Positions 1 to 29,069 of a stretch of DNA of 29,069 nucleotides are shown one piece after another. How positions within the stretch are numbered: position 1 is the stretch's first letter; every line of letters begins with the position of its first letter. This DNA is from a virus (lineage: Duplodnaviria > Heunggongvirae > Uroviricota > Caudoviricetes). The DNA lies in IMG/VR virus record IMGVR_UViG_2541047595_000013. The stretch is one strand, 5' to 3'. The notes beneath the pieces are model-generated. The model did no database searches, was not told the DNA's origin, and was given only the letters and a program-made list of their open reading frames with translations. Both the position numbers and the translations under genes were made by a program.

Positions 1-91
1 AGAAAAAGCTTATTATGCTTCCATCGGAAACGATGATCTGGCAGCCTGAGTTCACAGATAAAACACTCTCCAGGAAACCCGGGGCGGTTCA
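1..91 (+). mobile_element. Partial IS3-family (IS629/IS1203-like) element: right terminus with 3' end of orfB (…EKAYYASIGNDDLAA*, stop at 47-49) and terminal inverted repeat ending …GGTTCA
   Basis: Bases 1-91 match bases 28686-28776 (right end of the complete IS copy) with 2 mismatches; similarity stops exactly at the IS terminus (…ggttca), after which the flanks differ. Confidence 0.85.
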
Positions 92-116
92 GCAAGCTAT
101 ACGGGGATGATGATTA

Positions 117-1601
117 ATGGCCAGAAGTTGCGTAACGGATCCACGTTGGCGCGAGCTGGTGGCGCTATATCGTTATGACTGGATTGCTGCCGCTGATGTT
201 TTGTTCGGCAAAACACCTACCTGGCAGCAGGATCTGATTATTGAGTCTGTGCAGGAACAGGGTAGCAAGACATCTGTTTCGTCTGGTCACGGTACCGGGA
301 AATCAGACATGACTTCTATCATGATCATGTTGTTCATAATCATGTATCCCGGTGCCCGCGCCATTATCGTTGCGAACAAAATTCAGCAGGTAATGACCGG
401 TATATTCAAGTACATCAAGATAAACTGGGCTACTGCCACCAGCCGTTTTCCATGGCTTGCTGATTATTTTGTTCTGACAGAAACCGCTTTCTATGAGGTT
501 ACTGGTAAAGGTGTATGGACTGTAGTACCGAAGGGCTTTCGTCTGGGAAGTGAAGAAGCTCTCGCCGGTGAACACGCAGATCATCTTCTGTATATTATCG
601 ATGAAGCCTCCGGTGTCAGTGATAGAGCTTTCGGTATCATCACCGGTGCTCTTACCGGACAGGATAACCGCATCTTATTACTGTCACAGCCTACACGCCC
701 AAGCGGCTATTTCTACGATACTCACCATAAACTGGCCAAGCGTCCTGGTAACCCTGATGGCGTTTATACGGCGATCACGCTTAACAGTGAGGAATCACCG
801 CTGGTAACTCCAGCATTTATCAAAATGAAGCTGGCGGAGTACGGCGGGCGTGATAACCCTATGTACATGATTAAGGTACGCGGACTATTCCCTAAATCAC
901 AGGATGGCTTCCTTCTTGGACGTGATGAGGTTGAACGTGCGACGCGGCGGAAAGTCAAGATTGCCAAAGGATGGGGCTGGCTTGCATGTGTGGACGTTGC
1001 TGGTGGTACGGGACGGGATAAGTCCGTTATCAATATCATGATGGTGTCCGGCCAGAGAAATAAACGCCGTGTAATCAACTATCGAATGCTGGAATACACA
1101 GACGTTACAGAAACGCAGCTTGCCGCCAAAATTTTCGCAGAATGTAATCCTGAGCGATTCCCAAATATCACCATAGCGATAGACGGCGATGGGCTGGGTA
1201 AAGCAACGGCGGATCTGATGTACGAGTATTATGGTATTACCGTACAGCGTATACGCTGGGGTAAAAAGATGCATAGCCGTGAAGATAAGAGCCTGTACTT
1301 TGATAAACGTGCTTATGCCAACGTTCAAGCCGCAGAGGCCGTAAAATCTGGTCGTATGAGACTGGATAAGGGTAATGAAACTATTGAGGAAGCGTCGAAA
1401 ATCCCTGTAGGGATTAACTCCGCAGGTCAATGGAAGGTGATGAGTAAGGAGGATATGAAGAAAAAACTCAACCTGCACTCACCAGACCATTGGGATACAT
1501 ATTGTTTCGCTATGCTGGCGGATTATGTTCCCCAGGATGAAGTGCTTAGCGTCAAAGACGAAGCGCAGGTTGATGAAGCTCTGGCATGGCTTAATGAATA
1601 A
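117..1601 (+). CDS. pacB: Terminase large subunit (P1 PacB-like)
   Basis: 494-aa ORF with Walker A-like SGHGTGKS and Walker B-like [10 protein letters not shown] ATPase motifs; position directly upstream of c1/coi/loxP/cre as remembered for P1 pacB. Confidence 0.7.
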
Positions 1602-1625
1602 CTCATTGACCATGCCGGATGGAAA

Positions 1626-2477
1626 CTATTGCGCGCTTTCGGGGTTGTCGTTTACTGGCTGCCCTTTCTTAGTTTTACGGCTGCGCGTAACTGATGCGGC
1701 TGATTTGACCTTTTTCTCTTCGCGAGTGATGGCAATTTGTTTTTTTACATTTTCAATATCTGCCAGGCGATATATTTTTGCCTGCGGCCAGCGGTCGCAG
1801 ATGATCGGTTCTATAGAGTCATAAAGGCTAAATTTTGCTTTCTCGAATTCACCGTTGATGATGATTCCATCACGGAGAGTTTCATCGCAGATAAACACAC
1901 CACACAGCGGCACATGGTAACTAACTGATTTACCATCATTGTAGTTAGGGCTACTGGAAATGTAATGGACGCGCAGCATTGTTTCGCTAAAGCCGTGTAC
2001 ACGCATACGGAATTTTTCATCCTCCGGGTACTGCTTCATTAGCTCTTTTGTTGCTTCCAGGTTCTCTATGTATTTCGCACTGTGCTCATTGATCCCCGCG
2101 CTTTTCTGGATGCGAATGTCCTTATCAATCAGATGAATAATGCGGCCAGCGGTCATGTTGACGCTGTTCACAGCTTCTGTCTGATAAGTTGTAACCTTAC
2201 GCACACCGCGAAGGATGTTAGGCACTGGATATAAAATAGTCTTTGGGATATTGAGGTCTGGGTACTGTTCCAGTTCCCGCGCCATTAAAGTCCATTTATC
2301 AATTTCAGCCTGAATGCTGTCCGTTTCTTTGAACGGCAGAACGACAACCGGGCGAACAGGACGACCGTCGCTGGCGGCATCAACGTGTTGGGCGCGTGCA
2401 ACAGCTTTTTTTAGAAAGAGATCCCTGAAGCTGACGAACTCCTGGTACAGTTGTTCGCCGTAGACATAATTTATCAT
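1626..2477 (-). CDS. c1: C1 repressor of lysogeny (P1 C1-like, 283 aa)
   Basis: 283-aa ORF, size and N-terminus (MINYVYGEQLYQEF…) recalled as P1 C1; strong SD GGAGGAGGA 4 nt before ATG; sits in immC next to coi and operator sites. Confidence 0.85.
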   Translation of the reverse strand: MINYVYGEQLYQEFVSFRDLFLKKAVARAQHVDAASDGRPVRPVVVLPFKETDSIQAEIDKWTLMARELEQYPDLNIPKTILYPVPNILRGVRKVTTYQTEAVNSVNMTAGRIIHLIDKDIRIQKSAGINEHSAKYIENLEATKELMKQYPEDEKFRMRVHGFSETMLRVHYISSSPNYNDGKSVSYHVPLCGVFICDETLRDGIIINGEFEKAKFSLYDSIEPIICDRWPQAKIYRLADIENVKKQIAITREEKKVKSAASVTRSRKTKKGQPVNDNPESAQ

Positions 2478-2500
2478 TGATCCTCCTCCAGAATTGACAT

Positions 2501-2541
2501 GGCCAACAACTCACAGCGGATTACACTGGGAGTTGTTGGCC
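2501..2541. repeat. 12-bp perfect inverted repeat (ggccaacaactc … gagttgttggcc) with 17-bp spacer in the coi-c1 intergenic region / c1 5' leader
   Basis: Read directly from the sequence; arms at 2501-2512 and 2530-2541 are exact reverse complements. Confidence 0.6.
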
Positions 2542-2587
2542 ACCATTATAGAAGGATCCAACGAAAATAATAGATTTATTAGTGCAT

Positions 2588-2797
2588 TTATTGTGAGTCT
2601 GGCTGGTTAGTGGCCATGAGATATTCGATTGTGTCAGTGAGATCATCCAGGTCGTCTTGGGTGATGCGGTACTCCTGATTGGATATCTTTGAGTAGTGTT
2701 CAGCAATGGCGCGGGCAGCGTCGGTTTCGGCGGGGTCTACAGATAAAGCGTTAGAGCAATGTCTAACGTCGTCGATGGTTGGTGGAATGAAAGCCAT
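2588..2797 (-). CDS. coi: C1 inactivator Coi-like protein (69 aa)
   Basis: 69-aa ORF immediately upstream of c1 on the same strand, matching the remembered P1 coi-c1 arrangement and size. Confidence 0.7.
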   Translation of the reverse strand: MAFIPPTIDDVRHCSNALSVDPAETDAARAIAEHYSKISNQEYRITQDDLDDLTDTIEYLMATNQPDSQ

Positions 2798-3036
2798 AAT
2801 TATGCCTCACTGTATTGACAACACAGAGCCTGAAGCTCTGACCTACTGTTTCACCCATGATCCATGCTGGGGTAATCTAACAACATTGCGCTGTGTGTAA
2901 GATGAGCAATGCATAGCTGTAATGCCGTTGTATAAGGTTTCCCTGTTTGCTCATTTCCTTCTGAGCCGCTCTACAACGCTGAAGACACATTAAATAGTGA
3001 ATCCAAAGTCGTATTACGAAACGGCGGCAAAACTAT

Positions 3037-8271: not shown

Positions 8272-10908
8272 TTATGCGTATTGTTGGATGACGGCCAGAA
8301 CGTCCGCCACGTTGTGTTTTGTCTCGATAATCCACCAGTTACCTGGGAAGTCGCTGTTCTTCGCCTTCGCTGGCAACCAGCGAGCGCCGAATTTCGCCTT
8401 GATTGCGTCTTTCGCACGGAAAAGAACCCCTTTCATGCCGGAGGCTTCCTGAAGCCCAAATACCTCGCCAGCGGCGAATTTTGGTGCGTACATCATCTTC
8501 AGGTCGGCGGTGGATACGCGATAATTCAGACCAAGAGACTGAGCTATGCTGGTGGCATCACCCTGTATTGATGATAACTCTTCTTGTTTCTCGTTTCTGG
8601 CAGCAATTTCTTCCTCCGTGATGTTGCCAAGGGCCAGGTTTATCCGATCAGCGTCTGCCTGTTTCTCTTCATCGGTGCGCCCGGCAAGTACCGTGTTAAT
8701 TCTGTGCAATATCTCCACATGATTCTTGCGCATGCTGAGCAATTCCGGCGTAACCTCGTTAAGGTCCACCAGCCCAAGGATGGCAAGGTCGGTAAACATT
8801 GATACCAGGTTGTAGGTCATGCGATAGCTGAGTTGCCCATAGGCTGATGGCAACTGCACCGCATCCATTTTATAGGCATCCATAAATTTAGAGCCGTCGT
8901 TTACGACATCCGCAATTGCCGGTGTGATTTTCCCTGTGGTGGCGGCCTCCCTGATTGCTGTTACCCACGATTGAGTCAGCGCGGCGACTGCATGATTCAG
9001 ATTGGCTTTCCGTTCTGCTGCAATGCGCGCGCTTGCTGCGTCCATTGTCTGCTTGATCTCGTCTTTATTGCTGTAAATGCCAATGGTGCCAAACTGTGCT
9101 GTGGTGATCTCATAATCTGACGCCCGGAACTCATTGGTACCGAAAATGGCATTGGTGACTTCAAGTTCAGAATCCCCGTTACGAGTAGCCCCCTGGCTTG
9201 TTTTTTCCGGCATTCTGGCGATCGCATCCGCTATTTTCTCCTGAATTGCTTCAGGGGATAGCGTATCTCCGTATGACGCGATTACATCGCCATAATTGGA
9301 GCCAAACAGTTCAACCAGGAATGTTTCTGCCGAACGGATCTGGCGGTTATTCCCTTCCGACATCATACCAAGCACCCATTTTGCAATTGACGACTTCAGC
9401 GCGCTGTCACGGCGATCCGGGTAAACCGCATGCTTCAGTGGGTCCGTATAGGTACCAACAAAATCAATGCTATAGCCTGACTCTGTAGTCTGAACGCCGT
9501 ACGAGTCAGTTATTTTGATCATGCCGCGCTGCTGGAAACGGTAGAAATCGTCACAGGAAATGATGTCGTTAATCCCGGCGATGGAGACGCCACCACTGAT
9601 TTTCTGCATAACAGCATCTTCATCGGGAGTTACATCCACCTGTTTATCCAGCGTCTTCACATCCCAGTTACCCGATTTGGTGCCTTTGAAGGTAAAGATG
9701 ATCTCCACGTCTGCGCGCTGGCTGTCGAAGTCCAGCGACTTAATGCGAACGATATCACCGGCATAATCGTAGTATTGGCCTACACGCCATGAGCGATCGC
9801 CGATAACAAGGAACTCACTCGCATGGTTTACCAGGTCAGGATCAACATCCAGAATGCCTTTATTTAATGCATCCTCCACCAGCGGGCGCAGGCGTTTGAT
9901 ATCCGTCGCGGCCTTCTGAGTACGGTTCAATAATTTCTCATAGCGGGAGATGGCTTGAGAGATATTAGCCTTGCGCTGAATGGCGCTTTTCAACGACGCG
10001 CGATACTGTGCTAACAACATACGGTCTGTGTGATGGACACTCCCCCAGCGTGCCTTCCAGTCTGCGTTATCCGCTGCCTTGGCCATTGCCGCCTGTTTGA
10101 ATTTAGCTACCTCGGCGGTGGTCTTTTCAAGTTCCGCTTTGCTTCGCTCCAATTCAGCGGTAAGTACCTCCACATCCTCACCAGCTGCGTGCTGCGCCTT
10201 GATGTAGTTCTGAAGGTCGATAGTAGCCTGTTCTTTCTGGCGAGCGCGTTTCGCAGCTTTCGCCTTATCCATTTGAACCTGCATCATTGCCAGACGTTCG
10301 CCGTCATCCTTCGCGGTATACATCTGCATTTCGATCATATCGTTGGCGTCGGCGTTCTCCATTTCTGACTTATCTGAACGGAGGATATCGGAGATCCAGC
10401 CTGCTTTACGCTTCAGCGTCTTCAGTCGGTATTCATCGAAAGACCCCTTGCCGCAGTAGTAGTGAACGCGAACGCTTGCACGGTTGGAGCCAACTCGGGC
10501 ACCGCGACCGTTTCGTTGCGCAATACTGGCTGGAGTCCATGGCAACGTCAGATGATGGATGTCAGTCGTTCCTCGATGCAGGTTGATACCCACCTCTGCC
10601 TTTTTGTTGCAGATGATGATCGGAGTCCGGCCCTCCTGGAAGTCGGCTGCAATCTTTTCCAGACCGCCCAACGACATTTCATTTTGCTGCGCGATATAGG
10701 CGTCATACAGAGCCATTTGCTCGTTGTATTTCGCTATCTGTGCATCTGTTGGTTCATCCGGTAACTCTTTCGGCGGTTTAACCGCTTTCAGTTTCTTACC
10801 GGTTTTACCTGCCTCGGCAACCGTCTGAGCATTCAGTATCCCCACCTTTGAAGGTTCAAGGTTAAGAGCATTGCAGATAATGCGCTTGAGCTTCTGGTGC
10901 TGCGTTTT
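8272..10908 (-). CDS. darB: DarB C-terminal portion (helicase C-terminal region), separated from the N-terminal portion by a frameshift
   Basis: Contains helicase motif VI-like TLPWTPASIAQRNGRGARVG. The frame is open upstream of the first ATG to the frameshift point at about 10905-10909; the two portions together give about 2,256 codons, matching the remembered size of P1 DarB (2,255 aa). Confidence 0.8.
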   Translation of the reverse strand, partial: KTQHQKLKRIICNALNLEPSKVGILNAQTVAEAGKTGKKLKAVKPPKELPDEPTDAQIAKYNEQMALYDAYIAQQNEMSLGGLEKIAADFQEGRTPIIICNKKAEVGINLHRGTTDIHHLTLPWTPASIAQRNGRGARVGSNRASVRVHYYCGKGSFDEYRLKTLKRKAGWISDILRSDKSEMENADANDMIEMQMYTAKDDGERLAMMQVQMDKAKAAKRARQKEQATIDLQNYIKAQHAAGEDVEVLTAELERSKAELEKTTAEVAKFKQAAMAKAADNADWKARWGSVHHTDRMLLAQYRASLKSAIQRKANISQAISRYEKLLNRTQKAATDIKRLRPLVEDALNKGILDVDPDLVNHASEFLVIGDRSWRVGQYYDYAGDIVRIKSLDFDSQRADVEIIFTFKGTKSGNWDVKTLDKQVDVTPDEDAVMQKISGGVSIAGINDIISCDDFYRFQQRGMIKITDSYGVQTTESGYSIDFVGTYTDPLKHAVYPDRRDSALKSSIAKWVLGMMSEGNNRQIRSAETFLVELFGSNYGDVIASYGDTLSPEAIQEKIADAIARMPEKTSQGATRNGDSELEVTNAIFGTNEFRASDYEITTAQFGTIGIYSNKDEIKQTMDAASARIAAERKANLNHAVAALTQSWVTAIREAATTGKITPAIADVVNDGSKFMDAYKMDAVQLPSAYGQLSYRMTYNLVSMFTDLAILGLVDLNEVTPELLSMRKNHVEILHRINTVLAGRTDEEKQADADRINLALGNITEEEIAARNEKQEELSSIQGDATSIAQSLGLNYRVSTADLKMMYAPKFAAGEVFGLQEASGMKGVLFRAKDAIKAKFGARWLPAKAKNSDFPGNWWIIETKHNVADVLAVIQQYA

Positions 10909-13900
10909 TCATCGGTGAAGATGATTTGCTTACCTTCCGGGAAAAACTCCTTCAGCGTGGCAATCAGCTTCGCGTATTTGGGCGTAACGGGGTGAGTTAC
11001 GGTCTGTTCGTCAATGCCAAACCTGGCCAGGCGCTTATTCACTTCCTGCTCGAACGCTTCCGGAACCTGCAACTGAATAAACTCGCCCTTATCTATCAGG
11101 GAGTATTGCGATTGCTGCGTGATTGAATCATCACTGTCGTCGTCTTCGCTGGTGGCTTGTTTAGGCAAACTGTCCGCCAGCTGCTGCACCGCATCGGCGT
11201 ACTCCGGCAGGAAACGATAGGTGATCCGGCGATAGTACAGGTCCATGTCAGTACATACGCGGTCCATATCCCTGATTATTGAGAAGATCGGACGGGCTTT
11301 CTCGTGCTCAATCACGCCGTCTTCATTGACCGAGGTCGTTACGCCATTGTTGGCTTTGGCCGCCGCTTCCGCCTGCTGACGCAATTCTTCATACGCCGCC
11401 AGTTGTTCTTCAGTAAGTGGTGCATCCTGCTGGTGTTCGTCCAGCTCCGGGATCTCCACGGTATCCTTAACGTCTTCCGCCGTTTTAAGCGTTACCCAGC
11501 GATGGAATATACCGCGCAGCGCATCAAGGTTTTCAAAGCCCACCAGCGCCATTTTTTCTTCAACTTCACCGCTAATTTTCTGTACCGTTTCCAGCCTGGT
11601 CTTGCCGAAGAATTTAACGAAGTCATCAGGACCGTAGATCCCCATGTTCTGCCAGTATTCCTTCGGCAGAACATGAGAAAGCATGTTGTATGCATCGATC
11701 GGGGTGTTAACGACTGGCGTTGCAGTCAGGAGAACCGGCCCGCGCCCACCATTCTTTTTCATCAGGTACGCGTTTTTAATTGCCATATCTCGCGCCGATT
11801 GCGCCACCGCGCTGGTGGGCAGATAGGCCAGTTGTGACGCTTCGCGACCATTTTTATAGCTATTGCGGTAGTTGTGACCTTCGTCAGCGATCACACTATC
11901 GAAGCCCATATCCTCAAAGTACGGATACTTCTCTGCTTTTTCGGTGCCGGTATCTGAATACTCCGACAATACCCGGCGACGCGCGGCCTCTTTGCGGTGG
12001 GAGTCGGAGTCCATTGCGCTGGCTACGCGTCCGGCGGCAACGAAGTCATAAAGCATATCCTGTGCATGCTCATCTACGGTGTCATCACGTAGCGGAATGC
12101 GGGCGTATTGTTCTTTGGTAAACACGACTGCACGGTAATTTGAGTGCGGGATCGCGTTCATCCGCGCCGTGATAGTGGCTTCATCTGCCAGCTTAAGAGC
12201 ATCGCGCATAACTGGAGTGCCATCAGTACCAAGAACAGGTTTACCGTTCTCATCGAGCACCTGCACCTGGCGAATCTGATCGCCATCCATCAGCACATCA
12301 AGACCGACGAACAGGTAGTTACTGAATGCCTCTTCACTCAGGAATTCTTTTGCTTCGTAATACCAGTTTTCCAGCACTGATTTAGGCACTACATACGCAG
12401 TACGGGTGGAGCGACCGTTCTCATAGTTGAACGCCTCAAGCGCCAGCGCGGTCGTGGTTTTACCCAGCCCGGTGCCGAAGCCCAGGATGCCGCGCCCATC
12501 TTCGGACAGTCGGCGCACCTCGCTATTCTGGTAATCAAATGGCTGGCGCTTACCGCTTAATCCCTTCAACCCAAGCGGATCGCCAGAGTGTTCATACGGG
12601 ATATTGCTATTGAACACATCGTTGTATTTGGCAACCAGCTCATCGTAGCGATCGTGCGTCTTGATCCACTTATTGAACTGGTCCTCAAGCAGTGCCATCT
12701 GCTCGCGGTAGCCGTTCGCCGTCGCGCTATCTTTGCCACCGATACGCGCACCATTGAGATACTTTTCCAGCTGTGCCGGGAACCCGGTCGCGTTTTCACC
12801 TGATTTACGGTCCCACTCGTAGCGAATCTCACCTGTTTCTTTATCCTTGCGCTGGACGACACCGTATCGGTGCCCGACGAACAGACCATCACCACCGTGA
12901 TAGGTGTCAGAAACCATTTCGTCGCCTTCCAGCTGCACTGACTGCACATAGCGCAGATCCGGATAGCCGTTTTCCTGCAAAAATTCCAGAATGACGGAAC
13001 GGTCGAACCAACGGCTATTGAGCTTAAACCGGATATTCTCTGCTGGCGTCTTGATGCGCTTCTCTTCGATAGCTGCCAGCTGATTAAGGACGTTGTTCTT
13101 TACTGGACCGTCGGGGAGTGTGGCAAGGAATTCCTGTTTTGGTGCCACTATCTCGTTAATGTCGCCGCTGGTGGCGCGGGCGAACGGAAAAATCCCGCCA
13201 TACGGTGAAACCGCAATGCCAGGGGTGCTGGCCAATAAATTAAGCAACTCGTCATCACTGGCTGGCAGTTCGCCGGTAAACGCAAGGCGGAAATCATCGA
13301 GCTGGATTGGATCGCGAGTGAGATCACTGTAGAGATAACGCAGGGTGTCCTGATAGCTGGTGGAGTCATAACTGGCGCTGGAATCATGCGTAACCAGTTT
13401 TCCTGTCAGCTCGTCAGAAATAGTGCCATCCAGCTTAATTGCACCACGGAAAGCAAACCAGGCGCGCGCACCGCTCCCCGATAATTTCGCTATCGGACCG
13501 CGACCGGGGTTACCAAAACGGTCAATCTCTGCCTGCAAACGGGATACCAGAGAAAGGCGCTGCTGTTCGATTTGTTCAGCACTATGCCCGGCGGCCTTCA
13601 TGTCCTGATATTCAATTAACATCCGGCCAATCATCGCCCCGCGATACAAGCGTTCACGGTATTTTTCAGGCTGGCTGTTAATCCAGTCCACCAGCTGCAC
13701 CATATCGTCGCTGATTGATGTGGTGTATTTATCGCGGACATTTGCCATCTGGGTAAATGTCATACCGAGACGGCCTTCTGTTGTAGTCAGGTTACGCTGA
13801 AGAGCCTCCCAGCTGTCCGCGCCATAACTGGCAACATCAATCTTCAGCTCCTTCCCTGCATCAGATTCAATCCAGCGACCACCAGCATATTTTTGCCATA

Positions 13901-15038
13901 CGCCATTAATCAGGCGCATTTCCCCTTCATCAACAACGTCTGCGGTCGGTGACGGTTCAGCCATATTGAGCAAAGACCAGTCGATACGACTTTCGAAACG
14001 ATGAATCAGCTTCGCTTTAAGAGCCTGGTTATCAATCTGCCCGTCGGCACGAACCTCAATACGCCCCTGGAATCCCTTCTCCTGGGTGCCATGAACAAAC
14101 CGGCGACCGTCCTTTTCAAACCACTTGCCAGAAATAAACGTTGGCCAAAGCACATTTGCCGATTCGAGAGTGCTTTCATCCACCAGGGGGATTTTCTCAG
14201 CCATCTCTGCCGGATGTTTGCGCATCAGCACCACATCTACGACCGTACTGGTCCCGTTAGCGTCAAAAGTACCGGTAGGCAAGCGGTGGGCACCAAGAAA
14301 TTCAGCTTTCCGTGATAGGCGCAGGCGTAACCGCTTCATGTTTGAACCTGAAACAATGGACGGCGGCACAATCACGCACATGAATCCGCCTGGCTTTATC
14401 TTGTCCAGCATGCGGAGCATGAAGTAAGAACCCATGTCCGTTTCTTCTGCGTAAGGCTTATCGATGTTGCGTGTGTTATCACGACCACCGAACGGAACGT
14501 TACCCACAACATGGTCGAATGAATCGTTAGGCGTGCTTACAGCCAGTTGTTCGAACGGAGAAATCTGTACGCTGTCTTCCGGGTGCAACAGCTGGTTTAT
14601 ACGACCGGAAACACTGCTGATCTCAGTCGCGGTCATCACCGTACCAACCGGTTTTGTCTCATTAAAAACGCCGGTTCCCGCCGATGGTTCCAGAGTGTTA
14701 CCTACGTCCGCGCCGTAGAGCTTCATGATCTCCCAGACACCTTCAGCGATCGGCTTTGGTGTGTAATATTCGGAGACGGACCCGCCAATGCCGCCTTCGC
14801 CGGTGTACCCAGCCAGGATCTGGCGCTGTTCATCTGTCAGTGTCGCGCCGTCCACCAGCGAATTAAGCAAATCTATCGCCTTCTGATTCGCCTCCCGGCG
14901 TAGTCGGTCATAGCTTTTGCCTTCCACCTTTTCCACGCCGTATCTAATCGGCGCTCGGTGAGATGTTATTGCCCTAATGTATTTCAATATTTCGCTGACA
15001 CTTGAACAGCGAAACACCCCCATAGATAGCTTGTTCAT
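10833..15038 (-). CDS. darB: DarB N-terminal portion (N6-adenine methyltransferase-like domain plus helicase N-terminal motifs)
   Basis: SAM-binding-like LEPSAGTGVF and motif-IV-like GNVPFGG; helicase motif I GFGTGLGKTTTALAL and motif II DEGHNY. The last 23 codons (RSTRSSSALSAMLLTLNLQRWGY*) are out-of-frame read-through after a 1-bp loss in an A5 run. Confidence 0.8.
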   Translation of the reverse strand: MNKLSMGVFRCSSVSEILKYIRAITSHRAPIRYGVEKVEGKSYDRLRREANQKAIDLLNSLVDGATLTDEQRQILAGYTGEGGIGGSVSEYYTPKPIAEGVWEIMKLYGADVGNTLEPSAGTGVFNETKPVGTVMTATEISSVSGRINQLLHPEDSVQISPFEQLAVSTPNDSFDHVVGNVPFGGRDNTRNIDKPYAEETDMGSYFMLRMLDKIKPGGFMCVIVPPSIVSGSNMKRLRLRLSRKAEFLGAHRLPTGTFDANGTSTVVDVVLMRKHPAEMAEKIPLVDESTLESANVLWPTFISGKWFEKDGRRFVHGTQEKGFQGRIEVRADGQIDNQALKAKLIHRFESRIDWSLLNMAEPSPTADVVDEGEMRLINGVWQKYAGGRWIESDAGKELKIDVASYGADSWEALQRNLTTTEGRLGMTFTQMANVRDKYTTSISDDMVQLVDWINSQPEKYRERLYRGAMIGRMLIEYQDMKAAGHSAEQIEQQRLSLVSRLQAEIDRFGNPGRGPIAKLSGSGARAWFAFRGAIKLDGTISDELTGKLVTHDSSASYDSTSYQDTLRYLYSDLTRDPIQLDDFRLAFTGELPASDDELLNLLASTPGIAVSPYGGIFPFARATSGDINEIVAPKQEFLATLPDGPVKNNVLNQLAAIEEKRIKTPAENIRFKLNSRWFDRSVILEFLQENGYPDLRYVQSVQLEGDEMVSDTYHGGDGLFVGHRYGVVQRKDKETGEIRYEWDRKSGENATGFPAQLEKYLNGARIGGKDSATANGYREQMALLEDQFNKWIKTHDRYDELVAKYNDVFNSNIPYEHSGDPLGLKGLSGKRQPFDYQNSEVRRLSEDGRGILGFGTGLGKTTTALALEAFNYENGRSTRTAYVVPKSVLENWYYEAKEFLSEEAFSNYLFVGLDVLMDGDQIRQVQVLDENGKPVLGTDGTPVMRDALKLADEATITARMNAIPHSNYRAVVFTKEQYARIPLRDDTVDEHAQDMLYDFVAAGRVASAMDSDSHRKEAARRRVLSEYSDTGTEKAEKYPYFEDMGFDSVIADEGHNYRNSYKNGREASQLAYLPTSAVAQSARDMAIKNAYLMKKNGGRGPVLLTATPVVNTPIDAYNMLSHVLPKEYWQNMGIYGPDDFVKFFGKTRLETVQKISGEVEEKMALVGFENLDALRGIFHRWVTLKTAEDVKDTVEIPELDEHQQDAPLTEEQLAAYEELRQQAEAAAKANNGVTTSVNEDGVIEHEKARPIFSIIRDMDRVCTDMDLYYRRITYRFLPEYADAVQQLADSLPKQATSEDDDSDDSITQQSQYSLIDKGEFIQLQVPEAFEQEVNKRLARFGIDEQTVTHPVTPKYAKLIATLKEFFPEGKQIIFTDEKRSTRSSSALSAMLLTLNLQRWGY

Positions 15039-27290: not shown

Positions 27291-27520
27291 AAGTTCCCTC
27301 CTACGTTGTCAGGAGGTAATGGTATGCAAAGTAACTTCTCAACCGGTTATGTTGCATAAGAGACTTACCTATTCAACCGACTTTTGGAACCTTCAATAAT
27401 AAGCCTGCTATTGGCGCTGAAAATAAGAACCATGCAGCTCTGAAGGCTTTCATTCATATCCTTATATGAACCGCCCCGGGAATCCTGGAGACTAAACTCC
27501 CTGAGAAAGAGGTAAACAGG

Positions 27521-27847
27521 ATGACTAAAAATACACGTTTTTCCCCCGAGGTCCGTCAACGGGCAGTTCGTATGGTTCTGGAAAGTCAGGGCGAATATGA
27601 CTCACAATGGGCGGCAATTTGTTCCATTGCCCCAAAGATTGGCTGTACACCAGAGACTCTGCGTGTGTGGGTTCGTCAGCATGAGCGGGATACCGGGAGT
27701 GGTGATGGTGGACTCACCACCGCTGAACGTCAGCGTCTGAAAGAGCTGGAACGTGAAAATCGTGAACTGCGCCGCAGTAACGATATCCTTCGCCAGGCTT
27801 CCGCTTATTTTGCGAAGGCGGAGTTCGACCGCCTCTGGAAAAAATAA
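27521..27847 (+). CDS. IS3-family transposase OrfA (helix-turn-helix / leucine-zipper part)
   Basis: 108-aa protein [22 protein letters not shown]… recognised as IS629/IS1203 OrfA; ends in an A6 run overlapping the orfB start. Confidence 0.9.
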
Positions 27848-28734
27848 TGCCGCTGCTGGATAAGCTGCGTGAGCAGTACGGGGTCGGACCGGTATGCAGT
27901 GAACTGCATATTGCCCCGTCAACGTATTACCACTGTCAGCAACAGCGACATCATCCTGATAAACGCAGTGCCCGTGCTCAGCGCGATGACTGGCTGAAGA
28001 GAGAGATACAGCGCGTATACGATGAAAATCATCAGGTGTACGGTGTGCGTAAAGTCTGGCGCCAGTTGTTACGCGAAGGTATCAGGGTGGCCAGATGTAC
28101 AGTGGCGCGCCTCATGGCGGTTATGGGACTTGCCGGTGTTCTCCGGGGTAAAAAGGTCCGTACTACCGTCAGCCGGAAAGCCGTTTCCGCAGGCGACCGC
28201 GTAAACCGTCAGTTCGTGGCAGAACGTCCTGACCAGCTGTGGGTGGCTGATTTTACTTACGTCAGCACATGGCAGGGCTTCGTCTATGTGGCGTTCATCA
28301 TTGATGTGTTTGCCGGATGTATCGTGGGGTGGCGAGTCTCATCGTCTATGGAAACGACATTCGTGCTGGATGCACTGGAGCAGGCGTTGTGGGCCCGTCG
28401 GCCGTCCGGCACAGTCCATCACAGTGATAAAGGTTCTCAGTATGTATCACTGGCCTATACGGAGCGACTAAAAGAAGCAAAACTGCTGGCATCAACAGGG
28501 AGTACAGGTGACTCGTATGACAACGCGATGGCGGAGAGCATCAATGGTCTTTACAAAGCGGAGGTAATACACCGTAAGAGCTGGAAAAACCGTGCAGAAG
28601 TGGAACTGGCCACACTCACGTGGGTGGACTGGTATAACAATCGACGATTGCTGGGAAGGCTGGGTCATATCCCTCCGGCAGAAGCAGAAAAAGCTTATTA
28701 TGCTTCCATCAGAAACGATGATCTGGCAGCCTGA
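27847..28734 (+). CDS. IS3-family transposase OrfB (DDE integrase catalytic domain)
   Basis: 295-aa protein with an rve-type DDE core (WVADFTYV … HSDKGSQY … ESINGLYKAE); overlaps orfA in the -1 frame, as in IS3-family programmed frameshifting. Confidence 0.9.
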   Translation: MPLLDKLREQYGVGPVCSELHIAPSTYYHCQQQRHHPDKRSARAQRDDWLKREIQRVYDENHQVYGVRKVWRQLLREGIRVARCTVARLMAVMGLAGVLRGKKVRTTVSRKAVSAGDRVNRQFVAERPDQLWVADFTYVSTWQGFVYVAFIIDVFAGCIVGWRVSSSMETTFVLDALEQALWARRPSGTVHHSDKGSQYVSLAYTERLKEAKLLASTGSTGDSYDNAMAESINGLYKAEVIHRKSWKNRAEVELATLTWVDWYNNRRLLGRLGHIPPAEAEKAYYASIRNDDLAA

Positions 28735-28736
28735 GT

Positions 28737-28943
28737 TCACAGATAAAACACTCTCCAGGAAAACCGGGGCGGTTCATATAATTCCGCGAGATACATGCCA
28801 ATAAAGCCAGCAAGTACGGCGGAAATACATTCGTCCAGCAATTTCTTGCATGAAGACTCGTAACGGTTTTCACATAGCCCACTCAAATACGAATACACCC
28901 CACCAAGAAGGGATAACATCACGATATGTACATAAAATGTCAT
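28737..28943 (-). pseudogene. Small hydrophobic ORF truncated by the IS insertion (native about 55 codons, then about 13 codons read from the IS terminus)
   Basis: ORF starts at 28943 and runs into the IS right end (28776), so its 3' end is IS-derived; predicted membrane segment (HIVMLSLLGGVYSYL; AVLAGFIGMYLA). Confidence 0.35.
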
Positions 28944-29069
28944 TTTTTACCTATACAACAGTAAGTTGAACAACATTTGGGCTTTGTTGAATAAATCAGA
29001 TTTCGGGTAAGTCTCCCCCGTAGCGGGTTGTGTTTTCAGGCAATACGCACGCTTTCAGGCATACCTGCT

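Follow-up and report, generated by a model that had tools for sequence, protein, structure and literature searches.

The window, which is the whole stretch of DNA analysed here (29,069 bp), is identical to contig CAPK01000115.1 of assembly GCA_000333175.1, a draft genome of E. coli ATCC 23506, as found by an exact match of its PacB sequence. It carries the backbone of a P1-like (Punavirus) plasmid prophage, recognised by pacA-pacB-c1-coi-cre and, further along, by darB, the portal gene and lydAB/darA. The IncY plasmid NZ_CP012491.1 is colinear with positions 92-27467 and shares 99.5% identity with them, and positions 92-3000 are 89.6% identical to P1. The gene order lpa-pacA-pacB-c1-coi-cre is the same as in P1 (NC_005856). 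The backbone is preceded by the right-hand 91 bases of an IS629 element (1-91, plus strand). On the same strand follow a detached 3' remnant of pacA (92-117), the first three bases of which (GCA, 92-94) are the right copy of a target-site duplication, and pacB (117-1601), which is intact and encodes the B subunit of the packaging enzyme (494 amino acids, 88% identical to P1 PacB with no gaps). Pfam gives no family for PacB, and PacA gives only a sub-threshold match to HTH_23. Both pacA and pacB are essential for plaque formation by P1 (PMC10695390).

The IS629 segment at 1-91 holds the last codons of orfB, with the stop codon TGA at 47-49, and the 25-bp right inverted repeat at 67-91, which ends in GGTTCA (inverted repeat coordinates after the AP000400.1 annotation). 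All of its 91 positions are the same in the right end of the IS629 annotated in VT1-Sakai (AP000400.1), and equally in that of a 1310-bp IS629 variant in NZ_CP025917.1. P1-like matches covering at least 80% of the query come from 18 phage and 550 plasmid records, and all of those listed begin at base 92. The IS629 boundary at base 91 is thus real and far beyond chance. From the letters alone, the first-pass annotation had placed the right terminus of an IS3-family element at this GGTTCA, and both the identity to IS629 and the P1-like alignments starting at base 92 bear this out. It had also described the segment as co-oriented with the complete copy at 27467-28776 and as differing from it by 2 of 91 bases. 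Exactly this is obtained by a gapless alignment of 1-91 with 28686-28776, the 3' end of the complete element, in which the two mismatches are G26/A and C78/A.

Between the end of the IS and the ATG of pacB at 117 there are 25 bases. In P1 and the intact relatives, pacA ends one base into pacB, so that stop and start are arranged as TAATG, and the local sequence of the intact relatives at this place reads ...GAAGTTACCCGCAAGCTATACGGGGATGATGATTAATGG. Intact PacA of the relatives ends in ...EEVTRKLYGDDD followed by the stop codon, and in the window this TAA (115-117) overlaps the ATG of pacB. The remnant at 92-117 accordingly comprises the last two bases of codon 390, the seven codons for KLYGDDD and the stop. 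That the short stretch before pacB represents the last codons of a truncated upstream gene had been proposed from the sequence, and this part of the proposal stands: the gene is pacA. The frame that had been read for it, QAIRG-stop, does not. The corresponding codons CAA GCT ATA CGG GGA TGA are present at 93-110 and lie outside the pacA frame, and QAIRG-stop as the tail of pacA is ruled out by translation of intact pacA, whose true tail is KLYGDDD-stop.

The other side of the insertion was sought through its predicted protein product. Three closely related PacA sequences, with assumed target-site duplications of 2, 3, 4 or 5 bp, served to predict ten PacA::IS629 fusion proteins, and these proteins were looked up by exact sequence in a collection of 15 billion proteins. 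One of the ten was found, namely the 3-bp model on the closest PacA (UGDF01000005-type), which is identical to CCP95089.1 and occurs on a single contig; models with 2-, 4- and 5-bp duplications, and those built on PacA of CP056619.1 or NZ_CP012491.1, are absent from the collection. CCP95089.1 is a fusion ORF of 399 amino acids consisting of PacA residues 1-390 followed by MNRPGNPGD, and its contig, CAPK01000036.1 (59,786 bp), belongs to the same assembly as the window. A missing IS junction can therefore be recovered by way of a predicted fusion protein.

CAPK01000036.1 ends in ...GTTACCCGCA followed by TGAACC..., with exactly 91 bases of the left end of IS629. At this junction pacA, ...GAAGTTACCCGCA (also read as ...ACCCGCA), runs directly into TGAACCGCCCC..., the left end of the element, and a fuller reading gives ...GAAGAAGTTACCCGCA joined to TGAACCGCCCCGGGAATCC... 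Over the 3978 bases upstream of the junction, CAPK01000036.1 matches an intact P1-like contig at 100% identity. In the window, the reciprocal junction reads ...GGGGCGGTTCA joined to GCAAGCTATAC (...GGTTCA joined to GCAAGC...). The last three bases before the IS on CAPK01000036.1 are the left copy of GCA, so that GCA is duplicated across the two contigs, in comparison with the single GCA of the empty site ACCCGCAAGC, which in the relatives lies in the context ...GAAGTTACCCGCAAGCTATAC... IS629 is reported to give target duplications of 3-4 bp (PMC3271280). The reciprocal junctions and the GCA duplication, set against the empty site with its single GCA, therefore indicate a simple insertion at codons 390/391 of pacA. 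That the IS lies in the 3' end of pacA had been suggested from the sequence, and CAPK01000036.1 is in line with it: pacA runs into the left end of IS629, and no intact pacA precedes the element.

The draft genome of ATCC 23506 (O10:K5:H4), which dates from 2013, was assembled from short reads with Velvet at a hash length of 93, using 101-bp paired reads with an insert of 400 bp (PMC3593327). The age and type of this assembly, together with the rarity of the junction, might be taken to mean that the IS fragment at the start of the contig is an assembly artefact, a chimeric join or repeat bleed-through over an intact pacA. PLSDB and 5426 complete E. coli genomes contain no place that covers at least 80% of window positions 1-400, a query that includes the junction of IS and pacA tail, and no record listed from INPHARED spans this junction. 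The exact junction 30-mer is absent from IMG/VR, GTDB representatives and JGI metagenomes, and the predicted left junction is likewise absent from IMG/VR. Such an artefact is nonetheless hardly credible. The junctions on two independent contigs are reciprocal, fall on the same nucleotide and show a duplication of 3 bp, as is typical of IS629. On both contigs the end of the IS is exactly where the P1-like sequence stops, no intact junction is seen, and a chimera would not yield a matching target duplication. The insertion of IS629 in pacA is, in the data searched, private to ATCC 23506.

The opening of the window inside IS629 has a simpler origin in the assembly. De Bruijn assemblers produce contigs that end about k-1 bases inside repeats, and the window opens inside IS629 because the Velvet contig (k=93) broke at the repeat. 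The IS629 end at position 1 is an assembler break at a repeat with no biological truncation, and a window that opens inside an IS can in general simply reflect a short-read contig break. From this break it also follows that the genome contains at least one further copy of the IS629 variant found in pacA. The opposite end of the window is bounded in the same manner by the first 90 bases of an IS903B-like element of the IS5 family (28980-29069, plus strand), identified by sequence match and by the annotations of the matching records. The three repeat-bounded contig ends (1-91, 28979/28980-29069 and the end of CAPK01000036.1) reach 90-91 bases into the repeat, 1-2 bases short of the 92 bases (k-1) expected of Velvet at k=93; the shortfall may arise where the first flanking base happens to be the same as in other copies.

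The explanation that we consider very probably correct is the plain insertion of one IS629 in pacA. The P1-like plasmid prophage of ATCC 23506 would have received a single 1310-bp IS629 by transposition at the GCA that spans codons 390 and 391 of pacA, 26 nt before the end of the gene and in the same orientation as pacA-pacB, with duplication of GCA. The assembler would have been unable to resolve this copy, so that the left junction closes CAPK01000036.1 and the right one opens CAPK01000115.1, each with 91 bases of the IS. Both of these 91-base ends are identical to one 1310-bp variant, that of NZ_CP025917.1 (59208-60517), which has a 3-bp duplication of its own (ATA) there and whose left end is matched exactly in many E. 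coli records. From these ends we infer a full length of 1310 bp for the copy in pacA. As no sequence reads through the element, the presence of one IS rather than two IS with other DNA between them is likewise deduced from the matching duplication and the matching ends of the variant.

The two junctions could instead belong to two IS629 copies that enclose other DNA, either as a composite transposon in pacA or as a cointegrate formed by recombination of the IS629 in pacA with an IS629 of the chromosome or of another plasmid. The interior of the pacA element is unassembled, and the contig break means that the variant has at least one further copy in the genome; homologous recombination through a simple insertion would keep both junctions and the GCA duplication, and P1-like sequence does occur inside chromosome records. 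Against this, the matching 3-bp duplication together with the ends of a single known 1310-bp variant is what a plain insertion predicts. Moreover, the two contigs (59.8 kb and 29.1 kb) and two IS interiors add up arithmetically to about 91 kb, near the 93-97 kb of most of the complete relatives listed, and there is no positive evidence of extra DNA. We regard an arrangement with two copies as very improbable. Its special form, in which the IS629 in pacA is the hinge of a cointegrate that fuses the P1-like element to the chromosome or another plasmid by means of two copies of the variant, appears about as improbable. Were it true, the element would be locked in and, with pacB uncoupled, unable to package itself, while it would keep its immunity (c1) and cre-lox.

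A single insertion of IS629 would affect both packaging genes. PacA loses its last seven residues (KLYGDDD) and gains MNRPGNPGD from the left end of the IS. pacB retains its own ATG and about 25 nt of its native leader; its TAATG overlap with pacA is lost. According to the P1 annotation, the late promoter LPpac and the predicted PpacB both lie upstream of the insertion point. In contrast to P1, then, pacA of ATCC 23506 is cut 26 nt before its end and extended by nine IS-encoded residues, and the insertion adds 1313 bp to the distance of pacB from pacA and the annotated promoters. Expression of pacB would depend on read-through across the IS. A simple scan of the sense strand of IS629 gave no convincing intrinsic terminator (one weak match, within chance), and no outward promoter above chance was detected by a simple scan of IS629 and the junction. 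Read-through seems possible because the IS is co-oriented with the operon and shows no convincing terminator on this strand. As judged from sequence, expression of pacA and pacB is likely to be impaired and packaging to be reduced or lost. Packaging might also survive, considering that the lost tail is short, that no convincing terminator is found and that pacB keeps its own ribosome-binding region.

The complete IS629 of the window (27467-28776, plus strand; 1310 bp) has the termini TGAACC...GGTTCA, with imperfect inverted repeats beginning TGAACCGCCCCGGG... and ending ...GGTTCA. Its orfA (27521-27847) encodes a product of 108 amino acids with HTH_Tnp_1, and orfB (27847-28734), which overlaps orfA at 27847 and lies in the -1 frame, encodes a product of 295 amino acids with the Pfam domains rve, HTH_21 and rve_3. 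In the variant that matches the ends of the copy in pacA, RefSeq marks a 'programmed frameshift'; this is an annotation, and frameshifting in the present copy is predicted. Between the complete copy and the IS629 of phage JLK-2012 (JQ347801.1) there are 5 differing nt (99.6% identity), and between it and the IS629 annotated in VT1-Sakai (AP000400.1) there are 60 (95.4% identity). It is assigned to sub-type II of Rump et al., the O55:H7/Shigella-like type. A copy in the Stx2a phage Stx2_131990 (LC645413.1) is 100% identical to it, and another, which lies on the IncFIA/FIB plasmid p14EC001c and has an IS903B-like end in its vicinity, differs from it by 1 nt. The sub-type II element is therefore in circulation on other mobile DNA as well.

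This copy is a simple insertion after codon 54 of a gene for an 87-amino-acid holin-family protein (PF16083 in relatives), which adjoins lydA/lydB. By comparison with relatives, the 3' part of the gene lies at 27365-27466 and the 5' part (54 codons) at 28782-28943, both on the minus strand. In NZ_CP012491.1 and two other loci, the sequences on either side of the IS adjoin directly. As compared with these empty sites, the element is bordered by a left copy of the TATA duplication at 27463-27466 and by a right copy, followed by one extra A, at 28777-28781. The extra A is absent from the three empty sites (GGAATATAAGG in gene orientation), and it could be a base carried over from the donor, a later 1-bp insertion or an assembly error. 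IncF DNA was considered as the right flank of this copy and rejected: only the IS and 91 bases of IS903B match, and the flank itself is the P1 holin-family gene. The insertion of the IS903B-like element lies 36 nt upstream of where the same interrupted gene starts, at what is also an assembler break.

The two IS629 elements are evidently separate copies, as had been supposed at the outset. Both IS629 ends could have belonged to one copy on a circular contig; this is ruled out by the right end of the contig, which is IS903B-like and not IS629, and by the differences between the copies, which amount to 3 of 91 bases at the left end and 2 of 91 at the right. The copy in pacA matches AP000400.1 at 91 of 91 bases of the right end and at 89 of 91 of the left. 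Of its 1310 positions, the NZ_CP025917.1-type variant shares all but 64 with the complete copy. The two copies belong to different sub-types and are probably about 5% divergent, if the unassembled interior of the one in pacA matches the variant that shares both of its ends. That Velvet extended its contig through one copy and ended it in the other may be due to this divergence.

The first-pass annotation had further pointed out that the two copies flank about 27.4 kb as direct repeats, which could support rearrangement. The direct repeats are there, and the recombination idea is weakened, although not removed, by the divergence of about 5%, since RecA-dependent deletion of the 27.4 kb is less likely between such copies than between identical repeats. 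No rearrangement is visible in the colinear alignment of 92-27467 with NZ_CP012491.1, in which the flanks of the second IS629 are contiguous.

Compared with IS629 as known from Shigella sonnei and from E. coli O157:H7 and O55:H7 (IS3 family; isoform IS1203), the complete copy has the same ends, length and orfA/orfB arrangement, the copy in pacA has the same ends, and the duplications of 3 bp and 4 bp fall within the reported range. Nothing structural differs, and only the insertion site at codons 390/391 of pacA is unseen in the other records searched. Both the IS629 insertion in pacA and the P1-like plasmid that carries it are ordinary. P1-like phage-plasmids of Enterobacteriaceae of the SJ46, RCS47 and pCFSAN004176P_03 type have a backbone that is 98-100% identical over 27 kb, and they too carry insertions of IS or transposons (IS4-like ISVsa5, TnpB genes and mcr-1 cargo). 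Unlike in these relatives, the two IS629 sub-types and IS903B in the element of ATCC 23506 hit packaging, holin and darB functions and deliver no cargo.

Relative to NZ_CP012491.1, a 1-nt deletion in a run of T at about 10905 splits a darB-like gene of 6.8 kb (annotated as 'N-6 DNA methylase') into ORFs at 8272-10845 and 10833-15038 on the minus strand (857 and 1401 amino acids); the gene is probably a pseudogene, or else the deletion is a homopolymer error. Taken with the lesion in pacA, the second IS629, IS903B and the darB frameshift suggest a prophage-plasmid in decay that is losing its lytic competence. For ATCC 23506, which produces heparosan, a probably decaying and packaging-impaired prophage could bear on phage release and on P1-type transduction in the production strain; beyond this strain the finding matters little. 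The same lydA protein and the same pacA-pacB junction sequence are also found inside multi-megabase chromosome records, which suggests either that P1-like elements are integrated in these chromosomes or that plasmid sequences were concatenated with the chromosomes in the records.
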